Numbered from the stretch's first letter, positions 190 through 29,184 are shown. The stretch: DNA of 47,223 nt from Thermoplasmata archaeon (GCA_049799275.1 JBARHO010000247.1:1-47223); one strand, 5' to 3'. The notes: generated by a model from the letters alone, not told the origin. Translations and numbers: made by a program.

Positions 190-1128
190 CTAGCCCCGCG
201 GTGAAGGGGGACGTTCGGTGGAACGGGAACGGCCTCTTGAGGTCCGCGGGTCGGCGGGGCCCGCCCTCCCGTTCTCCCGGACCCGCTGGGCGGCGATCGC
301 GAGATACCCCGCATCGATGTCGAAGCCCGTGAACGGGACATCCACGGCCAGGGCGGCGATCGCGGAGCTCCCGATCCCGACGAACGGATCCACGCTCTGA
401 CGGATGCGAGCGCGCCCGTGGAGCCGTAAGCATCGCTCGGCGAGCTCCGGAGGGAAGCTCGCGGGATGGGGGCGCTGCTCGGCGCGGGAGCGGATCGTGG
501 GGTACGGAAGGAACCAAGTGTTCCCCCGGCAACGGACCCCTTGGGCCCCGCCGCGCCATCGGTCCACATTACTGGTGTCCTGATAGGGGACCCCGATCGC
601 CAGGCGGTCCAGAGGGACCTCCCCGCTCTTCGTGAAGTGGAAGATGTACTCCTGGGCCCCGTGAAGGTACCGGGCCGATCGGAGGGGCTTGTAGTGCCCC
701 ACGGCGAGGTCCCGGTCGAGCCCGGTCGCCTGACCCACCGTCCCATGGTCGATCGCGATCGATTTCACCCAGTGGATGACGTTCTGGAGGACGAAGTGGT
801 TCCCGATCTCCCTCGCGACATCCCATGGGAGCCACGGGTCCTTGGGGCCCCCTCCGATGTTCAAGAAGAACGACCCCGCCTCCGACATCAGGGGTTCGAG
901 GGCTCCGGCGAGATCCCCCATCCAGCGAAGGTACGAGGCCCGCGGACGCCGGTCGTGGTAGACCCCGTACTTCATCCCCCGGTTGTACGGGGGCGAGGTC
1001 ACCACCACGTCCACCGAGGCGGGCGGAAGATGTCGCACGAGACCGGTCAACGCGTCCTCTTCCCAGAGGACCACGCGCGGCGAGCCGGTGCTCGGCCACG
1101 CGAAGAACGGCGCTTGATGGCGATCCAC
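190..1128 (-). CDS. Site-specific DNA methyltransferase, beta-class amino-MTase (N4-cytosine or N6-adenine)
   Basis: 312-aa ORF with a GTG start. Motif IV TSPPY lies near the N-terminus; HPASFPPEL and motif I DPFVGIGSS lie near the C-terminus (IV->I order = beta class). SPPY rather than DPPY favours N4-cytosine. Confidence 0.8.
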   Translation of the reverse strand: MDRHQAPFFAWPSTGSPRVVLWEEDALTGLVRHLPPASVDVVVTSPPYNRGMKYGVYHDRRPRASYLRWMGDLAGALEPLMSEAGSFFLNIGGGPKDPWLPWDVAREIGNHFVLQNVIHWVKSIAIDHGTVGQATGLDRDLAVGHYKPLRSARYLHGAQEYIFHFTKSGEVPLDRLAIGVPYQDTSNVDRWRGGAQGVRCRGNTWFLPYPTIRSRAEQRPHPASFPPELAERCLRLHGRARIRQSVDPFVGIGSSAIAALAVDVPFTGFDIDAGYLAIAAQRVRENGRAGPADPRTSRGRSRSTERPPSPRG

Positions 1129-1172: not shown

Positions 1173-2945
1173 CTAGCCCGCGGGTGCGGTCTTCGGGGCC
1201 GCTCCCTTCTGCATCTCGGCGCGGGCTTCCGCCAGGGCCTCGGCGGGTTCCTTGTAATAGTACGAGACCAGCCGGCCGACGTCGCGGTGGGTGAACGGCT
1301 TCTGGCGGGTCGCCCGGGTATCGAGGAAGCGGAGGTACTCGAGCATCTCGACCCGGTTACGGACCTCGCGCTCCATCTCCTTCATCGACCAGTTCTTCAT
1401 GATCGCGACGCGCTCGTAGATGTACGAGTGGCCGCTGAAGAGGAACGTGTCGTCGGCCGGGTTCCACGAGTAGACCGAGTTGGTGATGAGCTCGTTCGTC
1501 TCGGGGTCGAGACCGACGATCTCGGTGAGCGACGAGACGCGTCGGGTCATCTTGTTGCCGACCTTGACCTGCCGCTGCAGGAGGACGAGATTGAGCGCGC
1601 TCACGAGCGACCGGGGGAGCGAGATGGGAGGGTTCTCCATCCGGTGGACCATCGCCGACACGCTCTCCGCGTGGAACGTCGTATAGCAGGTCTTCCCCGT
1701 GGCCATCGCCTGGAACACGATGAACGCCTCCGCCCCTCGAACCTCCCCGACCATCAGGTACTGGGGGCGCTGGCGGAGCGAGGTCGCGAGCAGGTCGAAC
1801 ATGTCGATCTCCCCTGGGGCCTTGCCGCTCGTGACGTTCTTCGCGCCGAAGCCGGCGCGCGTGAGCGAGGGCACCCAGTTCTCGTGGGGCAGGTTGAGCT
1901 CCCGGGTATCCTCGATCGAGACGATCTTCATCTGGGGCGGGATGAAGAGCAGCGTCGCGTTGAGCGTCGTGGTCTTCCCGCTCGCCGTACCCCCGCAGAC
2001 CATCATCGACTGACCGTGCTCGATGGCGATCCAGAGGTACGACATCATCTCGGGGCTCATCGTCTTGAATTTCATCAGGTCGACCGGGGTGAACGGATTG
2101 TCCCGGAACCGTCGGATGGTGAACGAGCTCCCCCGCTTCGTGACATGCATCCCGAGCGTGGCCTGGAGCCGCGAGCCGTCCGGTACCGTCGCATCCAGCA
2201 TCGGGTTCGCGACCGAGATGTGCTTACCGGACCGCTGGGCGATCCAGACGACGAACGAGTCCACCTGTTCTGAGGACTCGAACCGGAGGTTCGATCGGAT
2301 CGATCCGAACTTCCGGTGGTAGATGAAGATCGGGATGCGGACGCCGTCGCACGAGATATCCTCGACCTCGCTGTCCGTCATCGGGACGTCGACGACGCCG
2401 TAGCCGATGAAGTCCCGTTCGAGGTAGTACAGGATCCGTCCCTTGGTGACGGGGCTCGGAGAGAGCTCCCACTCGTGGAACTGATCGTCCACCATCTTGC
2501 GGAGCACGCGCCGCTTGGTCTCGGGGTCGATCTCCGGGAGGGGCTCGAACTGATCCAGCAGCGTCTCCTTGAAACGGTTGAGCAGGCCCTTCTCGATCGC
2601 GGAGAGCGGCGGCTCGATGACCTCGTACAGGTACTCGTTCCGCACGTTGTGGAAGGTGATGCGGACGTAAGAGAACCCCTCGCGGATCGGGGCGAGGTCG
2701 AGCTCTTTCAGGTCGGGGTCGGTGAGCGGGGGGACCGGACAGACCTCTCCGTCGCTGCCCTGTCCCGAGAGACCGAGGCGGGCGAGCTTGACCGGCCGGG
2801 AATCGCTCGAGCCTTTCCGCATCGCGGCGCCGAACCGGAGCCACGAGGGGAAGGACGACTTGGGTCGCTGGGAACGCGGGATCAGGTCGCTGTCGCCGGC
2901 CGCGTCCTCGTCGACCGGTGCGGGTTCGATCGCTTCTCCTGCCAT
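1173..2945 (-). CDS. Type IV filament / archaellum-type secretion ATPase (FlaI/TadA/PilB family), copy B
   Basis: Internal ATG at 2945 preceded by GGAGGAGGA. Motifs: Walker A GGTASGKTTTLNA, Asp box VSIEDTRELNL, Walker B YLMVGEVRG, His box TTFHAES. The first 178 codons of the 768-aa track ORF overlap the upstream gene and are R/G-rich junk. Confidence 0.9.
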   Translation of the reverse strand: MAGEAIEPAPVDEDAAGDSDLIPRSQRPKSSFPSWLRFGAAMRKGSSDSRPVKLARLGLSGQGSDGEVCPVPPLTDPDLKELDLAPIREGFSYVRITFHNVRNEYLYEVIEPPLSAIEKGLLNRFKETLLDQFEPLPEIDPETKRRVLRKMVDDQFHEWELSPSPVTKGRILYYLERDFIGYGVVDVPMTDSEVEDISCDGVRIPIFIYHRKFGSIRSNLRFESSEQVDSFVVWIAQRSGKHISVANPMLDATVPDGSRLQATLGMHVTKRGSSFTIRRFRDNPFTPVDLMKFKTMSPEMMSYLWIAIEHGQSMMVCGGTASGKTTTLNATLLFIPPQMKIVSIEDTRELNLPHENWVPSLTRAGFGAKNVTSGKAPGEIDMFDLLATSLRQRPQYLMVGEVRGAEAFIVFQAMATGKTCYTTFHAESVSAMVHRMENPPISLPRSLVSALNLVLLQRQVKVGNKMTRRVSSLTEIVGLDPETNELITNSVYSWNPADDTFLFSGHSYIYERVAIMKNWSMKEMEREVRNRVEMLEYLRFLDTRATRQKPFTHRDVGRLVSYYYKEPAEALAEARAEMQKGAAPKTAPAG

Positions 2946-2959
2946 CGTTCTCCTCCTCC

Positions 2960-3934
2960 TTAGTTCAGCACCGGGACCATGAACCGCATGATGGCCCAGC
3001 CGACCACGAGCATGATCGTCGCGTGCTGCATCCCGTCCGAGATGCGGCCGTTGAGCAGGACGCCCGCCATGATGCCGTCCCCGACCGCGTGGACGATGAC
3101 GGCCACCAGGAAGGCGATGAACAGGACGGGGACGTAGTTGAACGATAGATTGACGGCCGTGGAGCCGAGGGAGCTCGCCGAGATCCCCTCGCCGGCGAGG
3201 ACCATCTGCGGCAGGAAGACCGCCGCCATGATGTAGATCGTGACGAGGAACACGAAGAACGAGATGTAGATGACCGTCACGTAGGTGAGCATCGAGATCT
3301 GGCGCTCCTGCAGGGAGAGCTGGACCTCGCGGGTGTCGTGCGCCACCATCGAGAGCACATCGGCGACATTGCCCCCGGCCTCGTTGGCGCGGGTCACGAT
3401 CGAGACGACGCGCTGGACCAACGGGGTCGGAACGCGCTCCTCGAACAGGCGAAGGGCCGTCATCACCGGGACCCCCCACTCGAGCTGGCTCGCCATCCGC
3501 TTGATCTCCTCGGTCAGGAGCCCATAGCGGCCCCGGCTGGCGACGATGATCGCATCCGGCAGGGTCATCCCGAACCGGCCCGCCTCGGCAACGTCCCGGA
3601 GGAAGTCCGGCAGGCGGTCCTCGATCTTCTTGACCCGTCGGGTCTCCGCGCTCGCGATGAAGCCGTACGGGGCGAGGATGGCGATCAGCCCGAAGACCAT
3701 GAAGTCGAGAGCCGGATTGATCCCGGCGCCCTCTCCCGCGCGTACCTCGATGTTCATGACGCCTACGGCGTTCAGGAACCCGACGACCCAGAGCACGGCG
3801 GCGACGGCGGTGCCGGCGACCAGGAGGATCTGGTCCTTCGTGAGCAGCGCGCGATGGTCGACCTTCGCCATCGCCCCGGCGAAGGCCTTCGATCGAACGA
3901 TCTTCGCGGTCGCGTTCGAGTCAGCGGTCGCCAT
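2960..3934 (-). CDS. Half-size type IV filament platform protein (single T2SSF domain, TadC / FlaJ C-half-like)
   Basis: 324 aa. N-terminal TM hairpin, cytosolic helical block RLPDFLRDVAEAGRFGMTLPDAIIVA...ANEAGGNVADVL, then C-terminal TMs. The ATG at 3934 directly abuts the TAG of the upstream gene. Confidence 0.8.
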   Translation of the reverse strand: MATADSNATAKIVRSKAFAGAMAKVDHRALLTKDQILLVAGTAVAAVLWVVGFLNAVGVMNIEVRAGEGAGINPALDFMVFGLIAILAPYGFIASAETRRVKKIEDRLPDFLRDVAEAGRFGMTLPDAIIVASRGRYGLLTEEIKRMASQLEWGVPVMTALRLFEERVPTPLVQRVVSIVTRANEAGGNVADVLSMVAHDTREVQLSLQERQISMLTYVTVIYISFFVFLVTIYIMAAVFLPQMVLAGEGISASSLGSTAVNLSFNYVPVLFIAFLVAVIVHAVGDGIMAGVLLNGRISDGMQHATIMLVVGWAIMRFMVPVLN

Positions 3935-4909
3935 CTAGGCCTCCTGCGTGAGAACGTACATGAAGAAAATGAACCCGAACTGGGAGACCGGGATCATGCA
4001 GAGGATGATCCCCCAGAGGACGTCGATCATGAACTGGCCGCCCCCGCCGATGATCGCGAAGATCGCGATGATGATGACCAGGAAGAGGGGGAACGCCACG
4101 ACGACCGTGACGAACGTCTCGGCGAGGAGACCCATCGTCTCGACCCGGCGGAGCGCGTCGAGCTTGCTCTCGCGCTGGAACTGCTCGGCCTTGAGCAGGA
4201 AGTACGGTTTGAGCTGTCCACCGGACGTCGCCGTCGTGACGACCCCCTGGAGGAAGTCCTGGAAGCGCTTGGACGGGCTGCGCGCCGCCCCGTTACGGAC
4301 CGCGGTGAGGATGTCGACCCCGAGCAGCTCGGTGTCGCGGGTGATCCACGCGGCCTCCTCGGCGACCTCTCCGTAGATCTTCTGCCGGGCGAGCTCCTTG
4401 AAGATCGCGTCGACGTTGACATCGGCGCTCGCCATCGCACTGACGAAGCTCATCGCCGCGCTGATCTTCATGTCGATCTTCTTCCCGCGGCTCCGGGCGG
4501 CGGAGGCGGGGGCCCCCTTGAGGACCGCGAACGTGCCCAGCGTTCCGAAGACCGGGAGGCCGATCGCGAGCAGAAGTCCGATCAGGAAGTCATTGAGGAG
4601 GAAGATGAAGAATATCCCGAGCCCGAGGCCGATCACGGTCGTGGCGATCCCGGTCACCACCGTGGACGCGTAGACCGTCGCGAGGTACTCGTCGCCCCGG
4701 ATGCGCATGTGGGCCTTGAAGAGGTTCTCCTCCAGGATGGGGTCGGGGGGCTTGGCCGTCACGCGCGCGCGGAACGTGCGCCAGGCCCACTGCTGGAAGC
4801 CCGTGATGGGCGAGTGGGTCGGCTGGGCGCCCTTCTTGACGCGGATGGTGGGGAAGACCGTCTCGGTCCGGGTCGGGACCGCGGCCGCCGGGGCGTCGGC
4901 CGAGCTCAT
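3935..4909 (-). CDS. Half-size type IV filament platform protein (single T2SSF domain, TadB / FlaJ N-half-like)
   Basis: ATG at 4909 overlaps the ATPase stop (ATGA). 324 aa. TM hairpin, cytosolic block ISAAMSFVSAMASADVNVDAIFKELA...FLQGVVTTATSGGQL, then C-terminal TMs. The upstream part of the 660-aa track ORF overlaps the ATPase gene. Confidence 0.8.
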   Translation of the reverse strand: MSSADAPAAAVPTRTETVFPTIRVKKGAQPTHSPITGFQQWAWRTFRARVTAKPPDPILEENLFKAHMRIRGDEYLATVYASTVVTGIATTVIGLGLGIFFIFLLNDFLIGLLLAIGLPVFGTLGTFAVLKGAPASAARSRGKKIDMKISAAMSFVSAMASADVNVDAIFKELARQKIYGEVAEEAAWITRDTELLGVDILTAVRNGAARSPSKRFQDFLQGVVTTATSGGQLKPYFLLKAEQFQRESKLDALRRVETMGLLAETFVTVVVAFPLFLVIIIAIFAIIGGGGQFMIDVLWGIILCMIPVSQFGFIFFMYVLTQEA

Positions 4910-6540
4910 GCGGGAGCCTCCGGGGTGACCCCGATCCGCGCGAGGACCTCCTTGGGGTCCCGGTAGTAGGAGCTCACGAGGCTCCAAAGCTGGCGATAGT
5001 CGTTGATCTTGTGCGCGACGAGATACCGGATGACCGCGACGCGGCGCTGGAACTCCTGGTCCATCTCGTCGGTCGTGTAGTTCTTGAGATCCATGATCTT
5101 GTCGAACAGGAACGAGTGTCCCTTGAACACGAACTTGTCGCCGGACGGCTCCCATTCGTAGACGGTGTTCGTGATGAGCTCGTTCGTTTCGGGCTCGAAC
5201 CCCACGATCTCGAGGACCTGCTTCAGGCGCCGAACGACGCCCTTCTCGGTCCGGGCCTGGATCTGGATGATGACGTTGTTGAGCGCCGAGAGGAGGATCC
5301 TCGGGGTGTTGATCGGAGGGTTCTCGAGACGGTTGACCATCGACTTCACGCTGTCCGCGTGCATCGTCGAGTAGGTCGTGTGGCCCGTGGCCATCGCCTG
5401 GAACATCGTGTACGTCTCTTTGCCCCGGACCTCTCCCACGATGATGTAGTTCGGCCGCTGGCGAAGGGCCGCGCGCACCAGGTCGAACATGTCGACCTCG
5501 CCGGCCGCCTTCCCGTCGGGCCCGCGGTCGCCGGTCCCGCTGCGGGTCGCCCCCGGGATCCAGTTCTCGTGCGGAAGGTTGACCTCGCGCGTGTCCTCGA
5601 TCGAGACGATCTTCGAGGTGGGTGGGATGAACAGGGCGATGGCGTTGAGCGTGCTCGTCTTGCCCGCGGCGGGGCCGCCGCAGATGATGAGCGATTCCCC
5701 CTGCTCGGCCGCGAGCCAGAAGTAGGCGATCATCTCCTCGTTGGCGCTTCCCGTGAGGACGAGGTCGACCGGGGTGAACGGGCGTTCCTTGAACCGCCGG
5801 ATGGTGAAGCTGCCGCCCCGGGTCGTGATCTCCTTCGAGTAGGTGGCCTGGACCCGGTGACCTTCGGGTGTCGTCCCGTCCAGGATCGGGTTCGAGACGG
5901 AGACCGCCTTGCCGCACCGTTGCCCGAGCTGGACGACGAAGGAGTTGAGGGTGTCCTCGTCCGGGAAGACCACCGAGGTCTTCATGGACTCGAACTTGGA
6001 GTGGAAGACGAAGAGGGGGACGTCGACCCCATCGCAGGAGATGTCCTCGACCTGGATGTCCTGGATCAGGGTGTCGATGGGACCGTACCCGACGAAGTCG
6101 CGCTGGATGTAGTAGACGACGCGTTCGGTCGAGAGCGGGCTCAAGGTGATCTGCCGGGTCTTGAGATAGTTCTCGACCTCTCCCCGAAGGTACGTCCGCT
6201 TCTCGGTCATCGAGAGCGTCGCGACCTCGGAACCCATGATCTTCGTGAGCGTGGTCTTGAGGTGGAGGATGAGCTCGCGTTCGTGGCGCGTGAGCTGCGG
6301 TTCGATGACCTCGTAGAGGTACTCCTTGGTCCGGTCGTTGTAGCTGATCCGGGCGTAACAGTAGGGAGGGTTGATCGCCGTGACCTCGAGCTCCTTCATG
6401 TCGGGGTCGCCGAGGGGCGGCATCGCGGTGATGAACGTCCCGGGGACGTCGGTACGACGCTCCCCGGTCGCGGTGGCCGGAACGACGTCGTCGGAAGAGG
6501 AATTGCGCGGGATCCGAACTCGGAACTGTGAACTACTCAT
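4906..6540 (-). CDS. Type IV filament / archaellum-type secretion ATPase (FlaI/TadA/PilB family), copy A
   Basis: 544 aa. Motifs: Walker A GGPAAGKTSTLNA, VSIEDTREVNL, Walker B YIIVGEVRG, STMHADS. The N-domain is paralogous to copy B (EYLYEVIEP in both). AGGAGA lies upstream of the ATG. Confidence 0.9.
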   Translation of the reverse strand: MSSSQFRVRIPRNSSSDDVVPATATGERRTDVPGTFITAMPPLGDPDMKELEVTAINPPYCYARISYNDRTKEYLYEVIEPQLTRHERELILHLKTTLTKIMGSEVATLSMTEKRTYLRGEVENYLKTRQITLSPLSTERVVYYIQRDFVGYGPIDTLIQDIQVEDISCDGVDVPLFVFHSKFESMKTSVVFPDEDTLNSFVVQLGQRCGKAVSVSNPILDGTTPEGHRVQATYSKEITTRGGSFTIRRFKERPFTPVDLVLTGSANEEMIAYFWLAAEQGESLIICGGPAAGKTSTLNAIALFIPPTSKIVSIEDTREVNLPHENWIPGATRSGTGDRGPDGKAAGEVDMFDLVRAALRQRPNYIIVGEVRGKETYTMFQAMATGHTTYSTMHADSVKSMVNRLENPPINTPRILLSALNNVIIQIQARTEKGVVRRLKQVLEIVGFEPETNELITNTVYEWEPSGDKFVFKGHSFLFDKIMDLKNYTTDEMDQEFQRRVAVIRYLVAHKINDYRQLWSLVSSYYRDPKEVLARIGVTPEAPA

Positions 6541-6549
6541 CGTTCTCCT

Positions 6550-7527
6550 TTACGAGGCCCCGACCCCGGTGGTCAACCGGACCTCTCCTCGAATGTACGA
6601 AAAGCTCGTGACGTCGGTCAGGGTCAGCGAGACCGGCACCATCGCCGAGGTCTGTGAAACGCAGCCCGAGTTGGCGATCGTCGCGACGACCGGGCTCGTA
6701 AGGCCGGCGCGTGCCACCGTCTGATTGAACAGTCCCCACCAGGCGCACGGGAAGTGCGTGTAGACGCCCATGGTGATGGTGAGGCCGCCCGTGAAGCCCG
6801 CCACCGCGCTCGAATTGTTGAACGTGACCGGCGCGGCGCCGATCAGATGCGAGTACATGTCCTGGGTGCCGGCGTAGGAGCTGGAGGTCGAGTTCCCCGT
6901 CAGCTGCGTGACCTCCATCGCGACGCTGAAGTTGCCCGAGGTCTGGGTGAGACTGATGAAGGGCGGATAGGCGATGTACTGGTTCGTTGCGGTCTGGCTC
7001 ACGATCACGGCATCGTCCTCGAGCTGGATCGTCTGGGCCGAGTAGTATCGGTTGGGAAGGTTCATCGAGACGAACCCGGTCGAGTAGTTCGCCCAGAGGG
7101 GTTTGGCCACTCCGGGATAGGCGATCTTGAGGAAGACGAACGGGGTCTCTTGGTATCCCGGATGCGTCGAGAGATTGAGCGTCGAGTAGTACGCGGCCCC
7201 CAGGAACGTGAGGCTTCCCTGGGTCCCTTGGGCGAAGAGCGGGATGCCTTGGGATTGCAGATTGAAGGTGGTCGCGAACGTGGGCGGGGACCCGAAGGCG
7301 ATCTGCTGCTCAAGGCTCGACTGCAGTTGGGCCATCGAGGTCTGCGCCGCGGTGGACCATTGGGACTCGTTCTCGGTCATCCACACCGGCACGTACTCCG
7401 TGAGGAAGATCCCGAAGAGCGCGAAGAACACGAGGAGGGACAGCAGGGTCCCGACGACCGAGACGACGCCGCGCGAATCTCGTTGAAGGTGGCGACGGCG
7501 GCGATACCGTCGTCGATCGTTCCGCAC
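6550..7527 (-). CDS. Pilin-like / pilus-associated protein with class III (type IV pilin-like) signal peptide
   Basis: GTG start. Arg-rich N-terminus, then RDSRG|VVSVVGTLLSLLVFFALFGIFL. The large Ser/Thr/Asn-rich extracellular domain carries many N-x-S/T sequons. It is the first gene of the filament operon. Confidence 0.6.
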   Translation of the reverse strand: MRNDRRRYRRRRHLQRDSRGVVSVVGTLLSLLVFFALFGIFLTEYVPVWMTENESQWSTAAQTSMAQLQSSLEQQIAFGSPPTFATTFNLQSQGIPLFAQGTQGSLTFLGAAYYSTLNLSTHPGYQETPFVFLKIAYPGVAKPLWANYSTGFVSMNLPNRYYSAQTIQLEDDAVIVSQTATNQYIAYPPFISLTQTSGNFSVAMEVTQLTGNSTSSSYAGTQDMYSHLIGAAPVTFNNSSAVAGFTGGLTITMGVYTHFPCAWWGLFNQTVARAGLTSPVVATIANSGCVSQTSAMVPVSLTLTDVTSFSYIRGEVRLTTGVGAS

Positions 7528-7599: not shown

Positions 7600-7607
7600 T
7601 ATAAAAA
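7600..7607 (-). promoter_or_regulatory. Candidate archaeal TATA box for the filament operon
   Basis: The reverse strand reads TTTTTATA in the AT-rich 157-nt divergent intergenic region, about 75 nt upstream of the GTG at 7527. Confidence 0.25.
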
Positions 7608-8292: not shown

Positions 8293-8698
8293 TCCTTCGA
8301 GCTGGGCGAACGGAACGCTTCGCGCCCGGATAGAGGCCGGTACCGCGGGCCCCAGCGTCTGAGGGCAGATCCCCGTAGGCCGGTCGCCGGGCCTCAGCGC
8401 GCTCGGGAACGCTTGGACCGTCCCTTGCCGCGGGAGCCTTCGGCCGCGACCTGGCTCTGCGCGAAAAGAAAGAGCGCGGGGACGAACCGGGCCCGGCCAA
8501 TATGCGCATGAGAAGGGATCCCGCTCGAGAGCGGGCTCGCTCCCGTGGACTGCGGGCCGGAGTTCGGGATCGGCGGGGCGACGCGGAGAGAACGGCCGTC
8601 CGGATGGTGGGATGGACGCCGGTTCAGCGTAGTAGCAGCCAACTTGGGAAATCGTCGCGCGACCCGCCGAACCCTCGCGAGCTGTCGCCCCATTTTGG
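8293..8698 (+). ncRNA. Candidate structured non-coding RNA of unknown family
   Basis: No protein-like ORF in any frame. Many GC helices, e.g. the 8-bp helix GGGGCGAC (8575-8582) / GTCGCCCC (8684-8691) enclosing nested hairpins, followed by ATTTTGG (8692-8698). Strand and ends are uncertain. Confidence 0.25.
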
Positions 8699-8838
8699 TG
8701 GTCTTGAGAAAACCGCGTGCGAATTATATAGTCCGGACCTATTGGCCAGATTAGTTCATAACCGGAAGGATAGTCAGTGACTGCTTGGTTACGGAGTATG
8801 CACGGGTGGTCTCGTCCCCCCTCGTCTGGGACCGAGCG

Positions 8839-9357
8839 ATGCGTGAGGTCCTCGTGATGCGGAAACCGGTCTCGGATCTGGATCGACGTTTCCGCGAGTT
8901 CACCGTGATGGCCGAGACGTTCTCCCGAGAGTTCGTGGCCCATTCCGGTCCCATCCTATCTCGCGACCCCGTTCGTTCGGCCGCGCTCAATCTCGACCTC
9001 GCCAAGACGGTGTTCGGAAAGTGGTCGATCGAGATCTTGACGGTCCTCTACACGGCGAAGACCGTGGGCTTTGAGGATCTGCGCCGGAGCCTCCGCGGGA
9101 TCAGCGCGCGGGTGCTCTCCCAAAAGCTTCGGGTCCTGGAGGATCGGGGTCTCGTGCACCGGAACGTCCTCCCTACCCGACCGACCCGCGTCCAATACTC
9201 CCTGACACCGGATGGTCTCACCGTGGCAAAGCTCGGTGAGCCGGTCTTCCTGTACCTGCGGTACCGGGGGGACGGCGGCCAGGGCGGAGGGGGCCACGAC
9301 CAGAACGTGGACTGGACCTCCATGCCGACCGGGACCTCCGGTGTGGCCCGAACCTGA
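8839..9357 (+). CDS. HxlR-family winged-helix transcriptional regulator
   Basis: GKWSIEILTVLYTAKTVGFEDLRRSLRGISARVLSQKLRVLEDRGLVHRNV...VQYSLTPDG. The start is uncertain: TTG 8785, or ATG at 8839, 8857 or 8908. Confidence 0.7.
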   Translation: MREVLVMRKPVSDLDRRFREFTVMAETFSREFVAHSGPILSRDPVRSAALNLDLAKTVFGKWSIEILTVLYTAKTVGFEDLRRSLRGISARVLSQKLRVLEDRGLVHRNVLPTRPTRVQYSLTPDGLTVAKLGEPVFLYLRYRGDGGQGGGGHDQNVDWTSMPTGTSGVART

Positions 9358-9550: not shown

Positions 9551-10078
9551 ATGCAGATCCTTCTTGTCCGCCACGGACCGGCCGCCACCCGGGACCCCGC
9601 CCGCTGGCCTGGGGACGAGGGACGACCCCTCACCCGCGAAGGGCGGGAACAGACCCGTCTGGTCGCTAGAGGTCTGGCCCGTCTGGGACTCCCGCGACCG
9701 CTGCTCGTGAGCAGCCCGCTCACCCGGGCCCGGTCGACGGCCGAGATCGTTCGCAAGGATCTCTCTTCGATCCTGCCTCTCCAGCTGTGGGAGGAGCTCC
9801 GACCCGGCGGTTCGGCCGTCGATACCCTGAAGCACGTCGGCCGGGCGAAGCGGAGGACACCGCTCGTCCTTCTCGTCGGGCACGAGCCCGAGCTGAGCAA
9901 GATCATCGGGCTGGCCCTGACCGGGGAATCGATCGGACTGACCCGTCTCAAGAAGGCCGGTGCGGCGCTGCTCTCGTTCTCGGGCGGCGTGGTCCCGAGC
10001 GGTGGAGAGCTCGAATGGCTCCTTACCCGGAGACAGCTCATCGCCCTGGGACGGGCGAAAGGCAAGCGGCGGATCTAG
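9551..10078 (+). CDS. sixA: Histidine phosphatase superfamily protein, SixA-like phosphohistidine phosphatase
   Basis: N-terminal LLVRHGPA (RHG motif), SSPLTRARSTAE and GHEPEL. About 175 aa. Confidence 0.7.
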   Translation: MQILLVRHGPAATRDPARWPGDEGRPLTREGREQTRLVARGLARLGLPRPLLVSSPLTRARSTAEIVRKDLSSILPLQLWEELRPGGSAVDTLKHVGRAKRRTPLVLLVGHEPELSKIIGLALTGESIGLTRLKKAGAALLSFSGGVVPSGGELEWLLTRRQLIALGRAKGKRRI

Positions 10079-10842
10079 TCCAGCTCGGCCTGCACCGGCG
10101 AGGAGAGCGTTCGCACGCGCGCTTCCTCCTTGGAGCGGGCCTCGGCCTCGACGCGCACCTGCGAGCCGTAGACGGACGCGAGGATCGTCTTCACGTCCCG
10201 GTGGACCTGGAGCGGGGGCCGATTGGCATCGACCCGCGAGAAACCGTACTCCTTGGCCATCCACTCGAACTCGTCGCTCAGGAGCTTCTGGTAGAGGAAG
10301 AAGCTCTCGAACCGGTCGCGCGACAGGGAGAGGTCCATCCCGCTCTCCCAGTAATCGAGGGAGCCGTACTTCGAGATGGCGCGATGCAAGAGGATGTCGC
10401 TGCTCGCGTCCAGGAAGATGGTGAGATCGGGGACGAGCGCGAAGCCATAGAGCTTCCGGGCCCAGTCGCGGGAGGCGCCCCGGACCGTCGCGCGCGCCAT
10501 CAGGGTGTAGATGTAGCGGTCGGCGAGAACGGTGCTGCCGGCCGACATCGCCGGGATGATCTTGTTCTCGAGCTGGTCCGCGAAATCGGCGGCGTACATC
10601 AGGGCCAGCGTGGTCGCTCCGAGCGTATGGCCCTGCTTCGCCTCATCGATCTGCTTCATGACCAGCGTCGATCGACGAAGCCCCGTATCGACGACCGGCC
10701 GGCCCTGGATCTCGAGCCATTCGCGGAGGAGCTCGACCTCGGTCGTCCGTCCCGAGCCGTCGGCCCCTTCGAGGACGATGAGCTTGCCGCGCAACGGCTC
10801 CTTCGGCATCCCGGGGATCGGCGTTCCGAACGTCTTACGCAT
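10075..10842 (-). CDS. Thymidylate kinase-like P-loop kinase, paralog 2
   Basis: LIVLEGADGSGRTT P-loop and ADRYIYT (DRY-type motif), with a long C-terminal tail. The alternative start at 10809 removes the 8-nt overlap with paralog 1. Confidence 0.65.
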   Translation of the reverse strand: MRKTFGTPIPGMPKEPLRGKLIVLEGADGSGRTTEVELLREWLEIQGRPVVDTGLRRSTLVMKQIDEAKQGHTLGATTLALMYAADFADQLENKIIPAMSAGSTVLADRYIYTLMARATVRGASRDWARKLYGFALVPDLTIFLDASSDILLHRAISKYGSLDYWESGMDLSLSRDRFESFFLYQKLLSDEFEWMAKEYGFSRVDANRPPLQVHRDVKTILASVYGSQVRVEAEARSKEEARVRTLSSPVQAELD

Positions 10843-11512
10843 GGGTCAGCATCTCCGTCTTCGGGAAGTGGTTCAGGAGCGGTCGGATCTCCTTGCGGAC
10901 CGTCGAGAGCACGTTCTCGACGGGTCGGTCCGCCTCGATGATCGCCAAGCGGTCCGTGCTCGCGAGGTGGTCGTACCCCCGCTTGAGGCGGGTCTGGAAC
11001 TTCTCGTAGCTGTCGACGACGTCGTCGGAGAGATGGAGGTCCATCCCGGCCTCGTAGTAGGAGATCGGCTGGCGCGAGGCCAGCTTGCGCCGGAGCGACG
11101 TCTGGACCGGGACGCGAAAGTAGAACGTGATGTCCGGTCGGGGAGCGAAGTCGTAGATGTTCCGGACCCAGTCCGGGTCGCACCCCCGCGCCGTGTCCCG
11201 GACGAACGCGGTGTAGACGTACCGGTCGCAGACAACGATGTAGCCCGCCCGCAGGGGAGGAAGGATGTGGCGCTCGAACCGGTCCGCGAAATCGGTGGCG
11301 TGGAGGAGCGAGAACGTCGTCGGGGTCAGGAGGCCCTTCTTCTTGCCCCGGCGGATGATCCGCGAGACGAGCTCGGAGGAGTTCCACTCCGTGAAGAAGA
11401 CCCGGTAGCCCCGGGAGGCCAGCCACTTCATCAGGAGACGGGCCTGGGTGGACTTTCCGCTCCCGTCGAGCCCCTCGAACACGAGGAGCCGGCCCGCATA
11501 GGGACGGGTCAT
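10835..11512 (-). CDS. tmk: Thymidylate kinase-like P-loop kinase, paralog 1
   Basis: LLVFEGLDGSGKSTQARLL, CDRYVYTAF and RPDITFYF (PDLT-like). 225 aa, typical Tmk length. Confidence 0.7.
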   Translation of the reverse strand: MTRPYAGRLLVFEGLDGSGKSTQARLLMKWLASRGYRVFFTEWNSSELVSRIIRRGKKKGLLTPTTFSLLHATDFADRFERHILPPLRAGYIVVCDRYVYTAFVRDTARGCDPDWVRNIYDFAPRPDITFYFRVPVQTSLRRKLASRQPISYYEAGMDLHLSDDVVDSYEKFQTRLKRGYDHLASTDRLAIIEADRPVENVLSTVRKEIRPLLNHFPKTEMLTHA

Positions 11513-11525
11513 CTCGGCGACGGGC

Positions 11526-13079
11526 TTAGTTGGCGTCGGTCATCACCTCGAGGCCCAGCACGCGTCGGAACGGTTTACGTAGACGCTCGGTCGTCCGGTC
11601 CGACGGGGCGAGCCATTTGGGCCCCGCGGGGCGGATGATGAGCGCCCGCGGCGAGCGACGCAACCGGAAGCGGACCGCGGAACCGTCCAGCGTCTCTGCG
11701 GTGAACAACAAGAGGCCTAGCCCGCGCGCGATCGTGTCGTCCCGGGGGCGAAGAGGGGGTCGCCACTGATGCACCCAGTCCCCGGGAGGCTCATCGCCCT
11801 CATGCATCGCGGCCGCGAGGGAGGCCAGCAGCGTCTGGCGATGGGAGAGCCCGAAGACCGCCGCGTGGCGCAAGAGGTAGGCCGAGTGGACGGGGTGTCG
11901 CCAGATCTCGATCACGCTGCCGACATCGTGCATCCAGGCCGCGACCATGAGCGCCAATCGCTCCTCGCGCTGCCATCCGTACCGACCGGCGAGGAGGTCG
12001 AACAGCTCGACCGCGGTGCGGCAGACCTGATCGCCGTGCGGGAGGGAGAAGCCGAACGCCCGGGCCGCCGCGGTCACGGACCGGTGGGCGAGGATCTCGG
12101 ACGGGCCCGGTAGCGGGACCTGGAGCCGGTCGTAGACGATCCCCTCGCGGATACCGGTCCCGCTGACGGTGATGCCGGGAAGGTCGAACCGGTCCAAGAG
12201 CTCCTCGGCGACGAGGCAGCCGGCGATGATGACGTCGGCCCGGTGCCCGCTCAACCCTTCGATGTCCCGGCGCCGGTCGGTCTTGAGATGAACGAACCGC
12301 TCGCACAGCTCCTCGATCTCGACCCGGGAGAGGGCATACCCATGTACCTGGGGGAGCGGATAGTGACGGTGGGAGATCGACACGCGCGCGACGCTCCGCA
12401 TGGTGCCCCCGACCGCGAAGAGCTTGGAGTCCTTCCGGGGCTGGAAGCGGGGGACGTGCCGGAGCTCGGCCTCGACGTGGGAACGGAGATCGTCGATCTC
12501 GTGGCGCTTGGGGGGATCGTGGCGGAGGAACCGGTCGGTCAGTCGAAGGGCGCCGAGCCGCACGCTCTCGACGTGGTCGATCTTTCCCTCCTGGGTCGTG
12601 ATGGCCTGAAGGGACCCTCCTCCGAGGTCGAAGATCGCGTCCCGGTCGAGCTCCCAGGCCCCGGCGACCCCGAGGTACGCCAGCCGGGCCTCCTCCTCTG
12701 GAGGGATGATACGGAGCGCGATGTTCGCGTCCCGACGGACCCGGCGCACGAACTCGGGACCGTTCGGCGCATCCCGGACCGCGCTCGTCGCGACCGCGAT
12801 GACCGGGGGTTCGCCCATCATCTCGAGCTGTCGAGCGAACCGTCGCATCGCCCGGTACCCGCGCTCGATCGCCGCGGGCGCCAGGGAGTGATCGGGACCG
12901 AGGTCCTGTCCGAGACGCGGGATCTCCTTCGTCTCGTAGACGGAGCGTAGGCCACCCGCCGGTGTGGTCTCGAACAGCACCAGCCGGGTCGTGTTGGAGC
13001 CCACATCGATCACCGCGATGTCCGCGGTGGGGTTCACTCCGTGCGCGAGATCGCTGCGGACCAGCTCGACCTCCGACAT
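11526..13079 (-). CDS. ppx: Exopolyphosphatase / guanosine pentaphosphate phosphohydrolase (Ppx/GppA family)
   Basis: IAVIDVGSNTTRLVLFE, FDLGGGSLQ (ASKHA phosphate motifs), and a C-terminal HD-like helical domain (WMHDVGS). Confidence 0.85.
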   Translation of the reverse strand: MSEVELVRSDLAHGVNPTADIAVIDVGSNTTRLVLFETTPAGGLRSVYETKEIPRLGQDLGPDHSLAPAAIERGYRAMRRFARQLEMMGEPPVIAVATSAVRDAPNGPEFVRRVRRDANIALRIIPPEEEARLAYLGVAGAWELDRDAIFDLGGGSLQAITTQEGKIDHVESVRLGALRLTDRFLRHDPPKRHEIDDLRSHVEAELRHVPRFQPRKDSKLFAVGGTMRSVARVSISHRHYPLPQVHGYALSRVEIEELCERFVHLKTDRRRDIEGLSGHRADVIIAGCLVAEELLDRFDLPGITVSGTGIREGIVYDRLQVPLPGPSEILAHRSVTAAARAFGFSLPHGDQVCRTAVELFDLLAGRYGWQREERLALMVAAWMHDVGSVIEIWRHPVHSAYLLRHAAVFGLSHRQTLLASLAAAMHEGDEPPGDWVHQWRPPLRPRDDTIARGLGLLLFTAETLDGSAVRFRLRRSPRALIIRPAGPKWLAPSDRTTERLRKPFRRVLGLEVMTDAN

Positions 13080-13197
13080 CCGCCGGTGGAATCACGTCCC
13101 TTCAGATACGTAAACCCGCCGGGCCGATCGAAGTCCCGACGGCCCGTGTATGTGCTGGTGTATAGAGAGGCCGGCGATCCCTGCGAAAGGGCCTGGC

Positions 13198-14085
13198 TCA
13201 CCGGGGCGCCGGCGGGAACCGTGCGACGGCCTTCCGGACCTTCTTCTTGGAAAGGGTGCGATGGATCCGTCGGGCCCATTTCCTCCGAGAACGGACCGCG
13301 TGGCGTTCGAGGCAATCGGCCGTGATCCTCGGCGGCGCGTGGGCGATCGTCCGCTGGAGGACATCGAAGTCGTGGAGGCGCCCGATGCGATGCTGGAGCC
13401 GGACGAGAGGGACCACCGGCGAGCCCCCGGCCGGCCCAGGGCCCGATCCGACCTCGCTCAGGAGGTCCCGGGAGTTGCGGATCTCCTTGCGGAGCTGGTG
13501 CAGGCGGCGGGACGAGGGCCTTCCGTGGGCCTTCCGCAACGCCCGCTTGAGACGACGGTGGCGTCGCGCCAGTTCGTCCCCGAGCGCCGAGCTGAACTTG
13601 TCCTCGGTCGCGGAGGGAGGGCGCTCGATCATCTGGGTGACCTGCTCGAGGGCCTTCCGGGTCCCCGCGCCGCGCAGGAGCCGACCCAGGGCGGCCCGAC
13701 GTTGTTCCCTCAGGGCCCGGACGTGGTCCAGTACGGCGTCCACCTCGTCGGCGGAGACCTCCGAGGCCCGGCCATCCAGCCCGTTGAGCATCTCTTCCAT
13801 CACGTCCGAGTCCCGGACCGCCCCGAGCGCGCGAGCGATGGAGCGCAGCCGAGCATCCACGGACCTCAGAGCGGGATCGATCGGGTCGCCCGCGATCCGC
13901 TCCACCACGGCGAGGTCGAGGCGGAGCCGGCGTACCTGACGGTGGAGCTCATGGACCCCCTCGGGGGCCATGGCGGTCCCGCCGCCGTGCCCATCGAACC
14001 CTTGTTCCACCGAGGCGATCTGACGTCGCAGGTGGGCAAAGAACGATCGAGCGCCCGGAGCCGGGAACGTGGGACGAGAGGACAT
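13198..14085 (-). CDS. CHAD domain-containing protein (polyphosphate-associated)
   Basis: Repeated conserved His/Arg helices: VHELHRQVRRLRLDL, LHQLRKEIRNSRDLLEV, LQHRIGRLHDFDVL. Start taken at the ATG giving MSSRPTF; the track ORF extends to 14151. Confidence 0.65.
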   Translation of the reverse strand: MSSRPTFPAPGARSFFAHLRRQIASVEQGFDGHGGGTAMAPEGVHELHRQVRRLRLDLAVVERIAGDPIDPALRSVDARLRSIARALGAVRDSDVMEEMLNGLDGRASEVSADEVDAVLDHVRALREQRRAALGRLLRGAGTRKALEQVTQMIERPPSATEDKFSSALGDELARRHRRLKRALRKAHGRPSSRRLHQLRKEIRNSRDLLSEVGSGPGPAGGSPVVPLVRLQHRIGRLHDFDVLQRTIAHAPPRITADCLERHAVRSRRKWARRIHRTLSKKKVRKAVARFPPAPR

Positions 14086-14188
14086 GGTACGAAGATAGAG
14101 AGCCCCCGATCGCACTTGAAGGTCCCCTTGAGCGCGCGGGGACATGCGCATCGGCCATGCAACCCCCCGGTGCTAGAGAGCGCTCAGG

Positions 14189-14294
14189 TCCCGGCTGCCT
14201 GACTCGAACAGGCGACCTGAGGATGTCCACGGGGGCCGCCGGTGACCGGCGGTCGCTACTACAGTCCCCCGCTCTACCACTGAGCTAAGCCGGG
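14189..14294 (-). tRNA. tRNA-Tyr (anticodon GTA) with a 34-nt intron
   Basis: Reverse strand: acceptor CCCGGCT/AGCCGGG, D arm TAGCTCAGTGGTAGAGC, anticodon stem GGGGA/TCCTC with loop CT-GTA-G[intron]A, T arm GCCTG-TTCGAGT-CAGGC. Confidence 0.85.
14225..14258 (-). other. tRNA-Tyr intron at the canonical 37/38 position
   Basis: 34 nt (TAGCGACCGCCGGTCACCGGCGGCCCCCGTGGAC on the RNA strand) interrupting the anticodon loop after position 37. It contains its own GC helix. Confidence 0.75.
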
Positions 14295-14318
14295 TACCGG
14301 TCGGGAGCGGGGGGGGTC

Positions 14319-14966
14319 CTATAAGCCTTCGTTCGAACGACCGAGGGCCTCGAGGATCCGGCGGCTCACCTCGGCCAGTGTTCCCGTGGCATCGATCGTG
14401 CGCAGCGATCCCGACTTCTGGTAGTGGGCGAGGAGCGGCGCGGTCTTCTCCCGGTACACCGAGAGACGCGTCCGGACCGCCGACTCGGTATCGTCCGAGC
14501 GCTGTACCAGCGGGGTCCCGTCGTTATCGCAGATCCCCGGCCGCTGGGGTGGTCGGGTCTTGAGGTTGTACGCCGTGCCGCACTTCGGGCACGTCCACCG
14601 CTGGGTCAATCGCTCCACCAGATCGGCCTCGGGGATCTCGAAGGCCAGGACGACATCGATCGGGGTGATCTTGGCCAGCTCCTCCGCCTGCGCGATGTTG
14701 CGCGGGTACCCATCGAGGAGGAACCCGTTCTGGGCATCGGGTTCCGCCAAGCGTTCCTTGAGGATCCGGAGCACGAGATCGTCCGGGACGAGCTGTCCCT
14801 GGGTCATGAACCGGTCCGCCTCGAGCCCCAGCGGCGTCCGTCGCGACACGGCCGCGCGCAGAAGGTCCCCCGTCGAAAGGTGGGGGATCCCCAGCCGCCG
14901 AGAGAGCTCGGCGGCCTGGGTCCCCTTTCCGGCACCGGGCGGTCCCACCAGGACGATCCGGGGCAT
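14319..14966 (-). CDS. adk: Adenylate kinase (long form with Zn-finger-like LID)
   Basis: IVLVGPPGAGKGTQA, and a LID with CPKCGTAYN...ICDNDG. Confidence 0.95.
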   Translation of the reverse strand: MPRIVLVGPPGAGKGTQAAELSRRLGIPHLSTGDLLRAAVSRRTPLGLEADRFMTQGQLVPDDLVLRILKERLAEPDAQNGFLLDGYPRNIAQAEELAKITPIDVVLAFEIPEADLVERLTQRWTCPKCGTAYNLKTRPPQRPGICDNDGTPLVQRSDDTESAVRTRLSVYREKTAPLLAHYQKSGSLRTIDATGTLAEVSRRILEALGRSNEGL

Positions 14967-15004
14967 GGGCGCACCGACCCCATCGAGAGTATAGCGATTT
15001 GCGG

Positions 15005-15748
15005 TCAGCCGACCCGGGTCCCGTGGAACGCGAGCCCGCGCAGGGCCGCTTCGAGGTTGTCGAGGTCGCGCCCGTTCACGATCCGCAGCGGGATCCCGGC
15101 GCGCGCGAGGAGGTCGGCCCCGAGCCGGTCGAAGACGTACTCCTGGCCCGCCTCTTGCACTCCCGTGGCCTGCTGGACCATGTGCCGGAACTTGGACCAG
15201 GTCAGTCGGGGGAGCAAGCGGGCGCCCGGGACCTTCCGGGGATCGGCGTCGTAGACCCCATCGACCCGGGTGGCGTTGACCAATCGGCTCGCCCGGAGCC
15301 GGGCCGCCAGGAGCGCCGCGACCCCATCGGTCGTGTGGCCCGGTTCGGTGCCTCCCAGGACCACCAGCGAACCCCGGTGGGCCTCATGGACGGCGGCCGC
15401 GATGGAGGTCGGTGGATGGGCGGGGGCCGGTGGCCCGATACGGGCCGCGAGGATCCGGGCATGGAGCCGCGTCACCTCGATCCCGATCTCGTCGAGCTCC
15501 ACCTCGGTCAGTCCGAGCGCTCGCCCCAATCGGATGTACTCGCGCGCCGTTCGACCACCGCCCGTCGTGACGACGAGCGGGAACTCGCGTTCCAGCGTGC
15601 GCAGGAGCTGGGAGAGCTTGTCGATGTACACGGCGTCCCCGTCCCCGGTCGCGAGCACCGAGCCGCCGACCGACAGCACGACCGGGGCCCTCCGCGGACG
15701 GCGAGAACGGATCGGGGCCATCGGGCGCCGGACGAGGGGAGGGGACAT
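15005..15748 (-). CDS. pyrH: UMP kinase, archaeal type
   Basis: VLSVGGSVL, VVTTGGGRTAREYI, LGGTEPGHTTDGVAALLA. The start is uncertain (15748 or the ATG at 15721). Confidence 0.85.
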   Translation of the reverse strand: MSPPLVRRPMAPIRSRRPRRAPVVLSVGGSVLATGDGDAVYIDKLSQLLRTLEREFPLVVTTGGGRTAREYIRLGRALGLTEVELDEIGIEVTRLHARILAARIGPPAPAHPPTSIAAAVHEAHRGSLVVLGGTEPGHTTDGVAALLAARLRASRLVNATRVDGVYDADPRKVPGARLLPRLTWSKFRHMVQQATGVQEAGQEYVFDRLGADLLARAGIPLRIVNGRDLDNLEAALRGLAFHGTRVG

Positions 15749-15813
15749 CTTACTTCCGCTCGAACGACCGGGCGAACGGTTATCAGGTTCGCCGTCACCG
15801 ACGACCGATAGCG

Positions 15814-16533: not shown

Positions 16534-16617
16534 CGGCCCGCGACGATCCGCCTCCCCTGCCGTCAGCTTTAATGCGCGCGCCCGGTTCGCCGGCCCCCCG
16601 CTCGCACGAGGTAGTAC

Positions 16618-17400: not shown

Positions 17401-17443
17401 GACTTTAAGGGGCCCGGGCCTCCGTAAGAACACCGAGGGTACC

Positions 17444-28422: not shown

Positions 28423-29184
28423 ATGCTGATTCGGTTCCGTTTGCCCGGCACCCGCCCCCGATCCCGCCGAGCGGTCAGTCCGGTCATCGCGACCGTGCTC
28501 TTGGTCGCGATCACGATGGTCCTCGTGGCGGTGCTCTATGGGTACATCCAACCGAACTACCCTTCCCAGCAGCCCCAGTTGAACTTCGTCGCGGAAGGGG
28601 ACCAGAGCCAGCAGACGTGGGGGGATCCCACGGACTGCTCGAACACCACGAACGACGCGCAATGCAACAGCATCCCGGCCATCTTCGTGGTCTTCACGTC
28701 CTTCACGCCGGCGGTCATCCCGCTCCAGGACCTGCAGCTCTACCTGTACTGCAACGGAACGAGCCTCATCAACGGGACCTTCGCGTCGCTCGAGCTCATC
28801 CCCGGGACCGGTCAGAACCCCCCGTCGGGCTCGCCGACGCTCGGCGCCTGCGGAGGATGGTCCCCCAACCCGGTCGGTACCCACGCCACCTGGTTCAACC
28901 GGCTCCTCTACTTCCAGCAGGTGCAGACGAACCGCACCGTGCTCGCGGTCGGGGACATGTTCGTCGTCTACGCGCACCCTCCGCTGGGGTTCAAGGACTG
29001 GGGATGCACGCACGGGCTCTACCCCCCCGACTCGACCGAGTGCAGCGGGGAGGATGACGACTTCCACGGCGCTCCTCCCTGGTGCTACCAGGAGCCCGGT
29101 CTGTGCTCGGTCGTCTTCTACGACACGGCCGGCTCCGGCGCGGTCGTGGGCCAGGTACCGCTCTACGGCCTCGCTCCGCCCTAG
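28423..29184 (+). CDS. Archaeal type IV pilin-like protein (DUF1628-type N-terminus), Cys-rich ectodomain
   Basis: ATG at 28423. RSRRAVSPVIATVLLVAITMVLVAVLYGYI is the classic class III signal peptide plus hydrophobic helix. The ectodomain has 8 Cys and several N-x-S/T sequons. Confidence 0.75.
   Translation: MLIRFRLPGTRPRSRRAVSPVIATVLLVAITMVLVAVLYGYIQPNYPSQQPQLNFVAEGDQSQQTWGDPTDCSNTTNDAQCNSIPAIFVVFTSFTPAVIPLQDLQLYLYCNGTSLINGTFASLELIPGTGQNPPSGSPTLGACGGWSPNPVGTHATWFNRLLYFQQVQTNRTVLAVGDMFVVYAHPPLGFKDWGCTHGLYPPDSTECSGEDDDFHGAPPWCYQEPGLCSVVFYDTAGSGAVVGQVPLYGLAPP

Follow-up and report, generated by a model that had tools for sequence, protein, structure and literature searches.

We analysed a 47,223-nt stretch of DNA from a Thermoplasmata archaeon (GCA_049799275.1 JBARHO010000247.1:1-47223), referred to here as the window, whose positions are used for all coordinates. 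Its G+C content is ~67% and its composition is even. The minus strand encodes five co-directional open reading frames (ORFs), running from position 7527 to position 1173 in the order pilin-like protein, ATPase A, platform N-half (P1), platform C-half (P2) and ATPase B (Table 1). A type IV filament assembly operon of five co-directional genes had been proposed at this position from the DNA sequence alone (the original prediction), and the ORFs and their Pfam matches confirm it. The pilin-like gene and the gene for ATPase A are separated by a gap of 9 nt carrying AGGAG, and not by 10 nt as first reported. The other junctions are as predicted: the ATPase A and P1 genes share a 4-nt ATGA overlap, the TAG of P1 abuts the ATG of P2 with 0 nt of spacer, and a 14 nt gap containing GGAGGAGGAG separates P2 from ATPase B. 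A search of the 150 nt preceding each of the six co-directional genes (these five and a methyltransferase gene) gave a single TATA-like hexamer, TTTTTATA, which is likely to be the operon promoter. A single TATA-like box ahead of the first gene fits one transcription unit. The five genes form a tightly packed and translationally coupled type IV pilus-like assembly operon with two motor ATPases and a split platform.

Table 1. Positions of the operon genes and associated features in the window.
Feature	Position	Strand	Description
Prepilin-like protein	6550..7527	-	325 aa, GTG start
ATPase A	4906..6540	-	544 aa; FlaI/GspE2-type secretion ATPase
Platform N-half (P1)	3935..4909	-	324 aa; one T2SSF domain
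Platform C-half (P2)	2960..3934	-	324 aa; one T2SSF domain
ATPase B	1173..2945	-	590 aa; paralogue of ATPase A
N6/N4 DNA methyltransferase	190..1128	-	312 aa; Pfam PF01555
TATA-like box TTTTTATA	7600..7607	-	80 nt 5' of the GTG of the pilin-like gene; read from the sequence
Pilin_N-domain protein	28423..29184	+	PF07790, E = 1.9e-7; RRA followed by VSPVIATVLLVA; the start is a likely internal ATG of ORF 28240-29184

Both ATPases contain a T2SSE domain, and Pfam matches to PilB3_N and PilB3_C were also obtained for these ATPases (PilB3_C in ATPase A of the window). ATPase A has the Walker A motif GGPAAGKTS, the Asp box IEDTRE, the Walker B motif LRQRPNYIIVGEVRG and the His box TMHA, and the corresponding motifs of ATPase B are GGTASGKTT, IEDTRE, LRQRPQYLMVGEVRG and TFHA. 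All four motifs are intact in A and B orthologues from more than 130 other loci, and they are invariant or conservatively varied across every complete orthologue. This bears out the proposal of two FlaI-type ATPases flanking a split platform, neither of them decayed. The two proteins are 48% identical to each other in the window (48-50% overall), and ATPase B has longer N- and C-terminal tails than ATPase A.

We compared both ATPases against PDB and NCBIfam. The best PDB match of both was afGspE (2OAP; 408 bits for A and 409 bits for B), followed by S. acidocaldarius FlaI (280 and 294 bits) and CpaF (148 and 132 bits). In a trimmed alignment of the core, A is ~42% and B ~45% identical to afGspE, with identities of ~35% to FlaI and ~30% to CpaF. 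FlaI was the best NCBIfam model for both, yet the scores of 411 bits (A) and 401 bits (B) fall below its cut-off of 550. The TadA model scored 143 bits for each ATPase against a cut-off of 373, the VirB11/TrbB models scored 119-121 bits against a cut-off of 250, and pilT_fam scored 37-45 bits against a cut-off of 319, so that neither ATPase is PilT-like. Since the best NCBIfam models are FlaI for both ATPases and ArlJ for the platform halves, the operon could be read as a degenerate or alternative archaellum motor. We regard this as extremely improbable, given the sub-threshold FlaI scores and the weaker PDB match to S. acidocaldarius FlaI than to afGspE. Furthermore, there are no archaellin, FlaF/G/H or FlaX genes nearby, archaellum genes are reported to be lacking in Lutacidiplasmatales, and Cuniculiplasma has the cluster without having an archaellum or motility.

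A pilus assembly operon of this kind is widespread in Thermoplasmatota. Database searches with ATPase A returned more than 100 homologues that are 79-90% identical to it. All of them come from metagenome-assembled genomes of Thermoplasmata, and the names of the closest ones are Lutacidiplasmatales-like. Synteny was counted in the best 80 GTDB species representatives, many of which carry 'AcS' isolate names of the kind used for Lutacidiplasmatales. The order A-P1-P2-B was found on one strand in all 68 of the species-representative loci long enough to hold all four genes. It was also found in 58 of 60 loci from a second soil-metagenome lineage (named 'Euryarchaeota archaeon RBG_16_68_13' or 'Thermoplasmata archaeon'), whose proteins are ~62% (A), ~61% (B) and ~26% (pilin) identical to those of the window; the two exceptions have frameshifted A genes. 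A broader survey, which used 50%-identity cluster representatives branching near ATPase A together with cluster look-ups, recovered the ATPase/T2SSF/T2SSF/ATPase block in five further lineages: Methanomassiliicoccaceae, Cuniculiplasma, a Thermoplasmatales-like contig, a very high-GC relative (which also retains the ACT-domain and methyltransferase neighbours) and one other archaeon. The four core genes were never separated in any locus examined, and the pairing of A and B is conserved across at least five Thermoplasmatota orders, including cultured species. The arrangement is therefore not a rare one.

To place the ATPases, a neighbour-joining tree was constructed from A and B sequences of seven lineages together with afGspE, FlaI and CpaF, and rooted on CpaF. 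All A and B sequences join afGspE with 100% bootstrap support, with FlaI and CpaF outside. The A orthologues of Lutacidiplasmatales, the RBG_16_68_13-like lineage and Methanomassiliicoccaceae form one clade and their B orthologues another, each with 100% support, so that the duplication is older than these three orders. In all seven genomes the sequence of B is a little nearer to afGspE than that of A, in agreement with the published tree, in which the second Aciduliprofundum ATPase is sister to the group of afGspE. Based on these comparisons, A and B appear to belong to the afGspE/PilB3 clade, i.e., Clade 2 of Makarova, or System 2. We do not claim monophyly of all A-type or of all B-type ATPases across the phylum, as the deep nodes have bootstraps of 7-36%. 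A recent tandem duplication of an ATPase gene was considered and ruled out, both by the 48-50% identity between A and B and by their own 100% clades across three orders.

The level of sequence conservation differs strongly along the operon. Between the window and two relatives, identity is 81-83% for ATPase A and 81-82% for ATPase B, compared with 66-72% for P1 and P2, 63-65% for the methyltransferase, 57-59% for the ACT-domain protein and 36-42% for the pilin-like protein. The ranking, with the ATPases highest and the pilin-like protein lowest, repeats over 80 species, among whose representatives ATPase A is 76-84% and ATPase B about 75-85% identical. These comparisons show that purifying selection acts much more strongly on A and B than on the other genes of the operon. 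By this measure neither is a decaying copy, and both are among the most constrained proteins of the region. Identity of ~80% for A and B across genomes, against ~38% for the pilin-like protein, argues that both ATPases are needed.

Several longer relatives of the ATPases were also seen. Proteins of 1000-1300 aa (P0300-P0305, P0331, P0334, P0341, P0344, P0356, P0358, P0359, P0376 and P0388-P0390) carry inserts of ~450-740 aa, placed near the Walker A region or ahead of the C-terminal domain, which are probably inteins. We considered whether such 'double ATPases' might be A-B fusions, and found that most are single ATPases with these inserts. Secretion-ATPase domains do occur in tandem within one polypeptide, with two in P0256 (1154 aa) and P0381 (851 aa) and three in P0379 (1156 aa). 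All three proteins cluster with CpaF and not with the ATPases of the window; P0256 and P0381 were rejected as A-B fusions, both being CpaF-like and unrelated to the A/B clade.

The platform is split in a consistent manner. In the NCBIfam models for ArlJ/FlaJ and UpsF, the N-terminal half is matched by P1 and the C-terminal half by P2, and P1 also aligns to the N-terminal half of BasF. P1 and P2 have only the T2SSF repeat in common (29% identity over 170 aa). The mapping of N-half followed by C-half was repeated in Cuniculiplasma, Methanomassiliicoccaceae, the second soil-metagenome lineage and a further locus, L171, which makes five lineages with the window. The original prediction had likened the first half to TadB and the second to TadC; its N-half and C-half assignments stand, whereas these labels are reversed with respect to Denise 2019, in which TadC is equated with the N-half and TadB with the C-half. 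P1 and P2 follow the same N-then-C order as an unsplit gene, so their fission need not be that of Tad or Epd systems.

P1 and P2 have an ORF each in 139 of 140 related loci, and the stop of P1 lies 0-4 nt from the start of P2 in 126 of 131. An assembly frameshift of a single FlaJ is excluded by the separate halves in these 139 loci, which come from independent assemblies; the split is real, as predicted. The lone apparent P1-P2 fusion (L018) is on an indel-ridden long-read contig with frameshifts in P1, P2 and B. The 2026 preprint of Sivabalasarma & Albers assigns one platform gene to System 2 and split platforms to Systems 1, 4A and 4B, and makes no mention of loci with two ATPases. In the window, the single full-length platform gene that would mark System 2 is replaced by two 324-aa genes. 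Split platforms are also reported for Sulfolobales clades (Makarova 2016, PMC4858521). A split platform, which had been taken as a hallmark of the Tad/Epd lineage, is therefore not diagnostic of it.

The same arrangement has already been catalogued in cultured relatives. In Aciduliprofundum sp. MAR08-339 and A. boonei T469, genes 5-9 of the published locus are annotated as an arCOG02911 'predicted pilin' (clade_2), arCOG01817 FlaI, arCOG01808 TadC (4 transmembrane helices), arCOG01808 TadC (5 transmembrane helices) and arCOG01817 FlaI (PMC4858521, Table S4). The genes of this block overlap, and both ATPases are labelled Clade_2 (PMC4858521). The first Aciduliprofundum ATPase branches with A. 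sulfaticallidus and a nanoarchaeote, while the second is sister to an Archaeoglobales group that includes GI 11498267 (PMC4858521). We found that GI 11498267 is a 511-aa 'Clade_2' protein which matches afGspE (2OAP), and that its gene adjoins one for an unsplit, 614-aa TadC with nine transmembrane helices. The Aciduliprofundum halves, with 4 + 5 transmembrane helices and 332 + 290 aa, would thus reconstitute one normal Clade 2 platform. In Cuniculiplasma divulgatum, the ATPases CSP5_0712 and CSP5_0715 flank the TadC genes CSP5_0713-14, and the likeness to Aciduliprofundum was noted by the authors (Golyshina et al. 2016, PMC5155288); the cluster is also designated CPM_0710-0713 (PMC5155288). 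This species lacks archaellum genes, has pili seen by electron microscopy, and is listed with no other filament-assembly ATPase/TadC cluster in its genome paper (PMC5155288). The Lutacidiplasmatales genome paper does not discuss pili, and reports that archaellum genes are lacking.

Judging by synteny and published annotation, Aciduliprofundum and Cuniculiplasma share with the window the gene order and sizes, namely an ATPase of ~545 aa, a pair of half-size TadC genes (4 + 5 transmembrane helices) and a second ATPase, encoded by genes that overlap or abut one another. In these organisms the genes for the pilins and the peptidase lie elsewhere. A pilin-family protein of ~300 aa precedes the first ATPase in Aciduliprofundum and the window but is missing from Cuniculiplasma. 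The window differs from Aciduliprofundum in belonging to a different order, Lutacidiplasmatales-like by the names of its closest homologues, and from both genera in the longer tails of its ATPase B. Downstream of the operon it has a DNA methyltransferase gene where Aciduliprofundum has one for a large Zn-ribbon protein. In both the synteny survey and the literature, the gene order is that of a common, already classified archaeal pilus clade, an outcome that the original prediction had itself named as counting against it. The arrangement is therefore known and little-studied, and the window is a further example. Our literature searches turned up no account of its phylum-wide fixity, of the consistent N-then-C fission or of the equally strong constraint on both ATPases.

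The window can be compared with three other groups of systems. The Haloferax volcanii PilB3-PilC3 system and that of Archaeoglobus fulgidus afGspE share with it the ATPase family and, apparently, the adjacent signature gene for a large pilin-like protein and the supply of pilins in trans. These systems have one ATPase and an unsplit platform of ~614-650 aa with nine transmembrane helices, whereas the window has a split platform and a second ATPase. Epd of Methanococcus maripaludis and bacterial Tad (TadA/CpaF, TadB, TadC) have two half-size platform genes with a single T2SSF domain each, as the window does, and membership of this lineage, with an ancestral TadB/TadC fission and an added second ATPase, was the interpretation originally favoured. 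It is now largely refuted and we consider it highly improbable. The CpaF matches (130-148 bits) are far weaker than that to afGspE (~408 bits), the TadA model (143 bits) scores far below the FlaI model (401-411 bits), and the ATPases join afGspE with 100% bootstrap support. Their Aciduliprofundum orthologues are in Clade 2. We take GI 45357603 of M. maripaludis to be MMP0040/EpdL. The Methanococcus clade containing this protein is separate from the Aciduliprofundum ATPases (PMC4858521). The gene order also differs, since in Epd and Tad loci the ATPase and then a FlaH/TadZ-type secondary ATPase come after the platform genes (Denise 2019). The scanned parts of the window (Pfam covering the genes up to ~15.8 kb and from ~25.3 to 40.6 kb) yielded neither a FlaH/TadZ-like gene nor a short Flp/EpdE-type pilin, and no dedicated peptidase. 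Finally, Tad has one bifunctional ATPase, whereas the window locus has two paralogues. The third comparison, with bacterial type IVa PilB and PilT, is a working analogy only. PilB and PilT are two paralogous hexameric ATPases acting on one PilC-type platform, as A and B might be, but A and B keep full FlaI/GspE2-like N-terminal regions and are encoded on either side of the platform within one operon.

The first gene of the operon encodes a protein with a class III signal-peptide-like motif, one transmembrane helix and a beta-rich domain. In the alignment of its family the N-terminus is basic, R-[GA] is invariant and precedes VVSVVGTLLxLLVFFALFG, and two Cys residues are invariant. An AlphaFold2 model built on a 42-sequence alignment (predicted local distance difference test score of 84, predicted template modelling score of 0.81) has an N-terminal helix of 60 residues that leads into a beta-rich domain, giving the predicted structure the 'lollipop' shape of a type IV pilin. 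Orthologues from two other lineages match DUF7289 weakly in Pfam. In 78 of 80 species representatives it is the gene immediately preceding that of ATPase A. The large pilin-like proteins of arCOG02911 are 250-550 aa long with a class III signal peptide and an all-beta domain, and have been proposed to be minor pilins (Makarova 2016, PMC4858521). The size, architecture and position of the protein in the window match this description.

Small pilins and a single prepilin peptidase are encoded at other loci in Aciduliprofundum (PMC4858521), so the absence of such genes beside the operon in the window is expected. The original prediction had noted that the only other pilin-like gene lies about 21 kb away, which corresponds to the Pilin_N match. 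We suggest that this Pilin_N protein is a candidate substrate of the operon encoded in trans. In the region 28240-34300 its gene adjoins three others, which encode a 647-aa membrane protein that matches nothing in Pfam, a protein with Kelch repeats and a KaiC/GvpD-like P-loop ATPase. An association of KaiC-family ATPases with archaeal type IV pilus loci has been reported. The N-terminus of the Kelch-repeat protein, MGRG followed by ALLTISVIVLL, resembles a class III or anchor signal, and in the scanned parts of the window the only class III-type candidates outside the operon are the Pilin_N protein and possibly this one.

Taken together, the cluster is probably a chromosomal, vertically inherited Thermoplasmatota version of the Clade 2 / System 2 assembly system. 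In the function that we propose for it, P1 and P2 would assemble as a heterodimeric platform equivalent to the unsplit TadC with nine transmembrane helices of other Clade 2 loci. Powered by the ATPases, this platform would polymerise pilins that are encoded elsewhere and cut by a peptidase also encoded elsewhere, with the large pilin-like protein acting as a minor or priming subunit. The product would be an adhesive, non-archaellar pilus like the pili of C. divulgatum. Both ATPases would serve the one platform with divided roles, which could take the form of extension and retraction, sequential action, alternating hexamers or a mixed hexamer.

Several points weigh against this interpretation. 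Deep nodes of the neighbour-joining tree are poorly supported (bootstraps of 7-36%), and the placement outside Clade 1 relies on CpaF as a proxy together with the published tree, the references in our tree being afGspE, FlaI and CpaF. The pilin-like protein of the window has no Pfam match, and a Foldseek search with its globular part found no relative in PDB (best E = 4.9e-3, with a template modelling score below 0.15); its apparent identity as an arCOG02911-type protein comes from position and architecture. No prepilin peptidase (A24) or small pilin was found in the scanned parts of the window, as the original prediction had also noted. In all of the organisms, the function of the cluster is read from its genes, the link between the pili of C. 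divulgatum and its cluster is circumstantial, and action of A and B on the same platform complex is deduced from gene content and order.

A stronger version of this model, in which one machine built around a single split platform requires both A and B, is a tentative possibility. They might then be antagonistic motors for extension and retraction, sequential loaders or a mixed A3B3 hexamer. Alternatively, the operon might hold two adjacent minimal modules, ATPase A with a P1 homodimer and ATPase B with a P2 homodimer, used under different conditions or with different sets of pilins. Each ATPase does adjoin one platform gene, and ATPase and TadC have been treated as exchangeable modules, with 'two distinct ATPases' sharing pilins noted in one A. 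boonei locus (Makarova 2016, PMC4858521). Actinobacterial Tad systems have only one half-size platform gene (Denise 2019), which suggests that one half may suffice. However, the two halves are not equivalent, as P1 is always the N-half and P2 always the C-half in five lineages, and the transmembrane helix counts of 4 + 5 sum to the nine of an unsplit Clade 2 TadC. P1 and P2 are also almost always 0-4 nt apart, and the four genes are never apart in the loci examined. The fixed identities of the halves and the coupling of P1 to P2 make two separate modules less likely, and we consider them an unlikely explanation.

The genes around the operon provide further context for the proposed Clade 2 / System 2 assembly system. 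The co-directional methyltransferase gene starts 44 nt downstream of ATPase B. It is kept in 56 of 80 Lutacidiplasmatales-type loci (L001-L086) and in the divergent locus L172 (6653-7513), where ATPase A is only ~50% identical, and in some relatives it overlaps the stop of ATPase B. No such gene accompanies the cluster in the second soil-metagenome lineage, Methanomassiliicoccaceae, Cuniculiplasma and Aciduliprofundum. The methyltransferase is a lineage-specific conserved neighbour outside the core system. Its orientation, proximity and conservation within the lineage would also suit a machine for DNA transfer or DNA uptake, either a VirB11-like conjugation system or a competence-type pilus, as would the weak VirB11/TrbB similarity of the ATPases, although such similarity is common to all secretion ATPases. 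We judge this very unlikely. Neither ATPase comes near the VirB11/TrbB cut-offs, and both score higher with FlaI and afGspE. Genes for VirB4, VirD4 or a relaxase were not seen in the scanned parts of the window, the operon is surrounded by housekeeping genes, and the methyltransferase is missing from the cluster in four other lineages.

Upstream of the pilus operon and divergent from it are an ACT-domain gene, then tRNA-Gly, an HxlR regulator and housekeeping genes. A mobile-element origin was ruled out by these housekeeping neighbours, the even GC content and the conserved synteny with the ACT-domain gene. The HxlR-type helix-turn-helix regulator is encoded a few kb upstream both in the window (8785-9357, +) and in L087 of the second lineage (438-1091, +), with 37% identity over 129 aa; this recurrence may be a coincidence. 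The second lineage has a gene for a CARDB/double-zinc-ribbon protein of ~1530 aa downstream of ATPase B on the opposite strand, in 53 loci of L087-L166, and none was found within 8 kb in the lineage of the window. In L087 the coordinates are 12160-16752 (-) and 16565-18877 (+), the large Pilin_N protein coming after the zinc-ribbon protein. Gene 10 of the published Aciduliprofundum locus, a 'Zn-ribbon domain containing protein' (arCOG01917), is in the equivalent place. The CARDB/double-zinc-ribbon protein may be an accessory component.

Four other features of the window were observed. An Rfam tRNA match over 106 nt (14189-14294, -), which was not called by ARAGORN, probably represents an archaeal tRNA with an intron. 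The 5S rRNA gene of the window (20487-20608, +) stands alone, and neither 16S nor 23S rRNA is present. The ~490 nt (8293-8784) that separate tRNA-Gly(CCC) from the HxlR gene have low-quality ORFs only and no Rfam match at the gathering threshold, and may be a long leader or an unrecognised RNA. The minus-strand region 10075-14151 resembles a polyphosphate-related cluster: two tandem, overlapping paralogues of the thymidylate-kinase family are encoded there beside a Ppx/GppA phosphatase and a protein with a CHAD domain.

For the window itself the result is modest, as it holds a well-conserved and previously catalogued pilus operon in a soil Thermoplasmata genome. For the phylum, the fission of the platform is not confined to the Epd/Tad lineage, and the statement that System 2 has a single platform gene fails for Thermoplasmatota. 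Such loci may therefore be missed or misfiled by models in which an unsplit platform is obligatory. Archaeal type IV pili, some of which retract, are thought to run on a single ATPase. No archaeal retraction ATPase is known in the 2026 classification (Sivabalasarma & Albers). Two active, slowly evolving ATPases around one split platform throughout the phylum are a natural place to seek a second motor function. If both ATPases are obligate in one machine and divide its work, it would be the first type IV filament system of archaea to have a dedicated second motor. The presence of the cluster in the cultured species Aciduliprofundum boonei and Cuniculiplasma divulgatum makes the idea of two motors testable, and the phylum-wide fixity of the cluster, its N-then-C fission and the constraint on its ATPases make the question worth an experiment.

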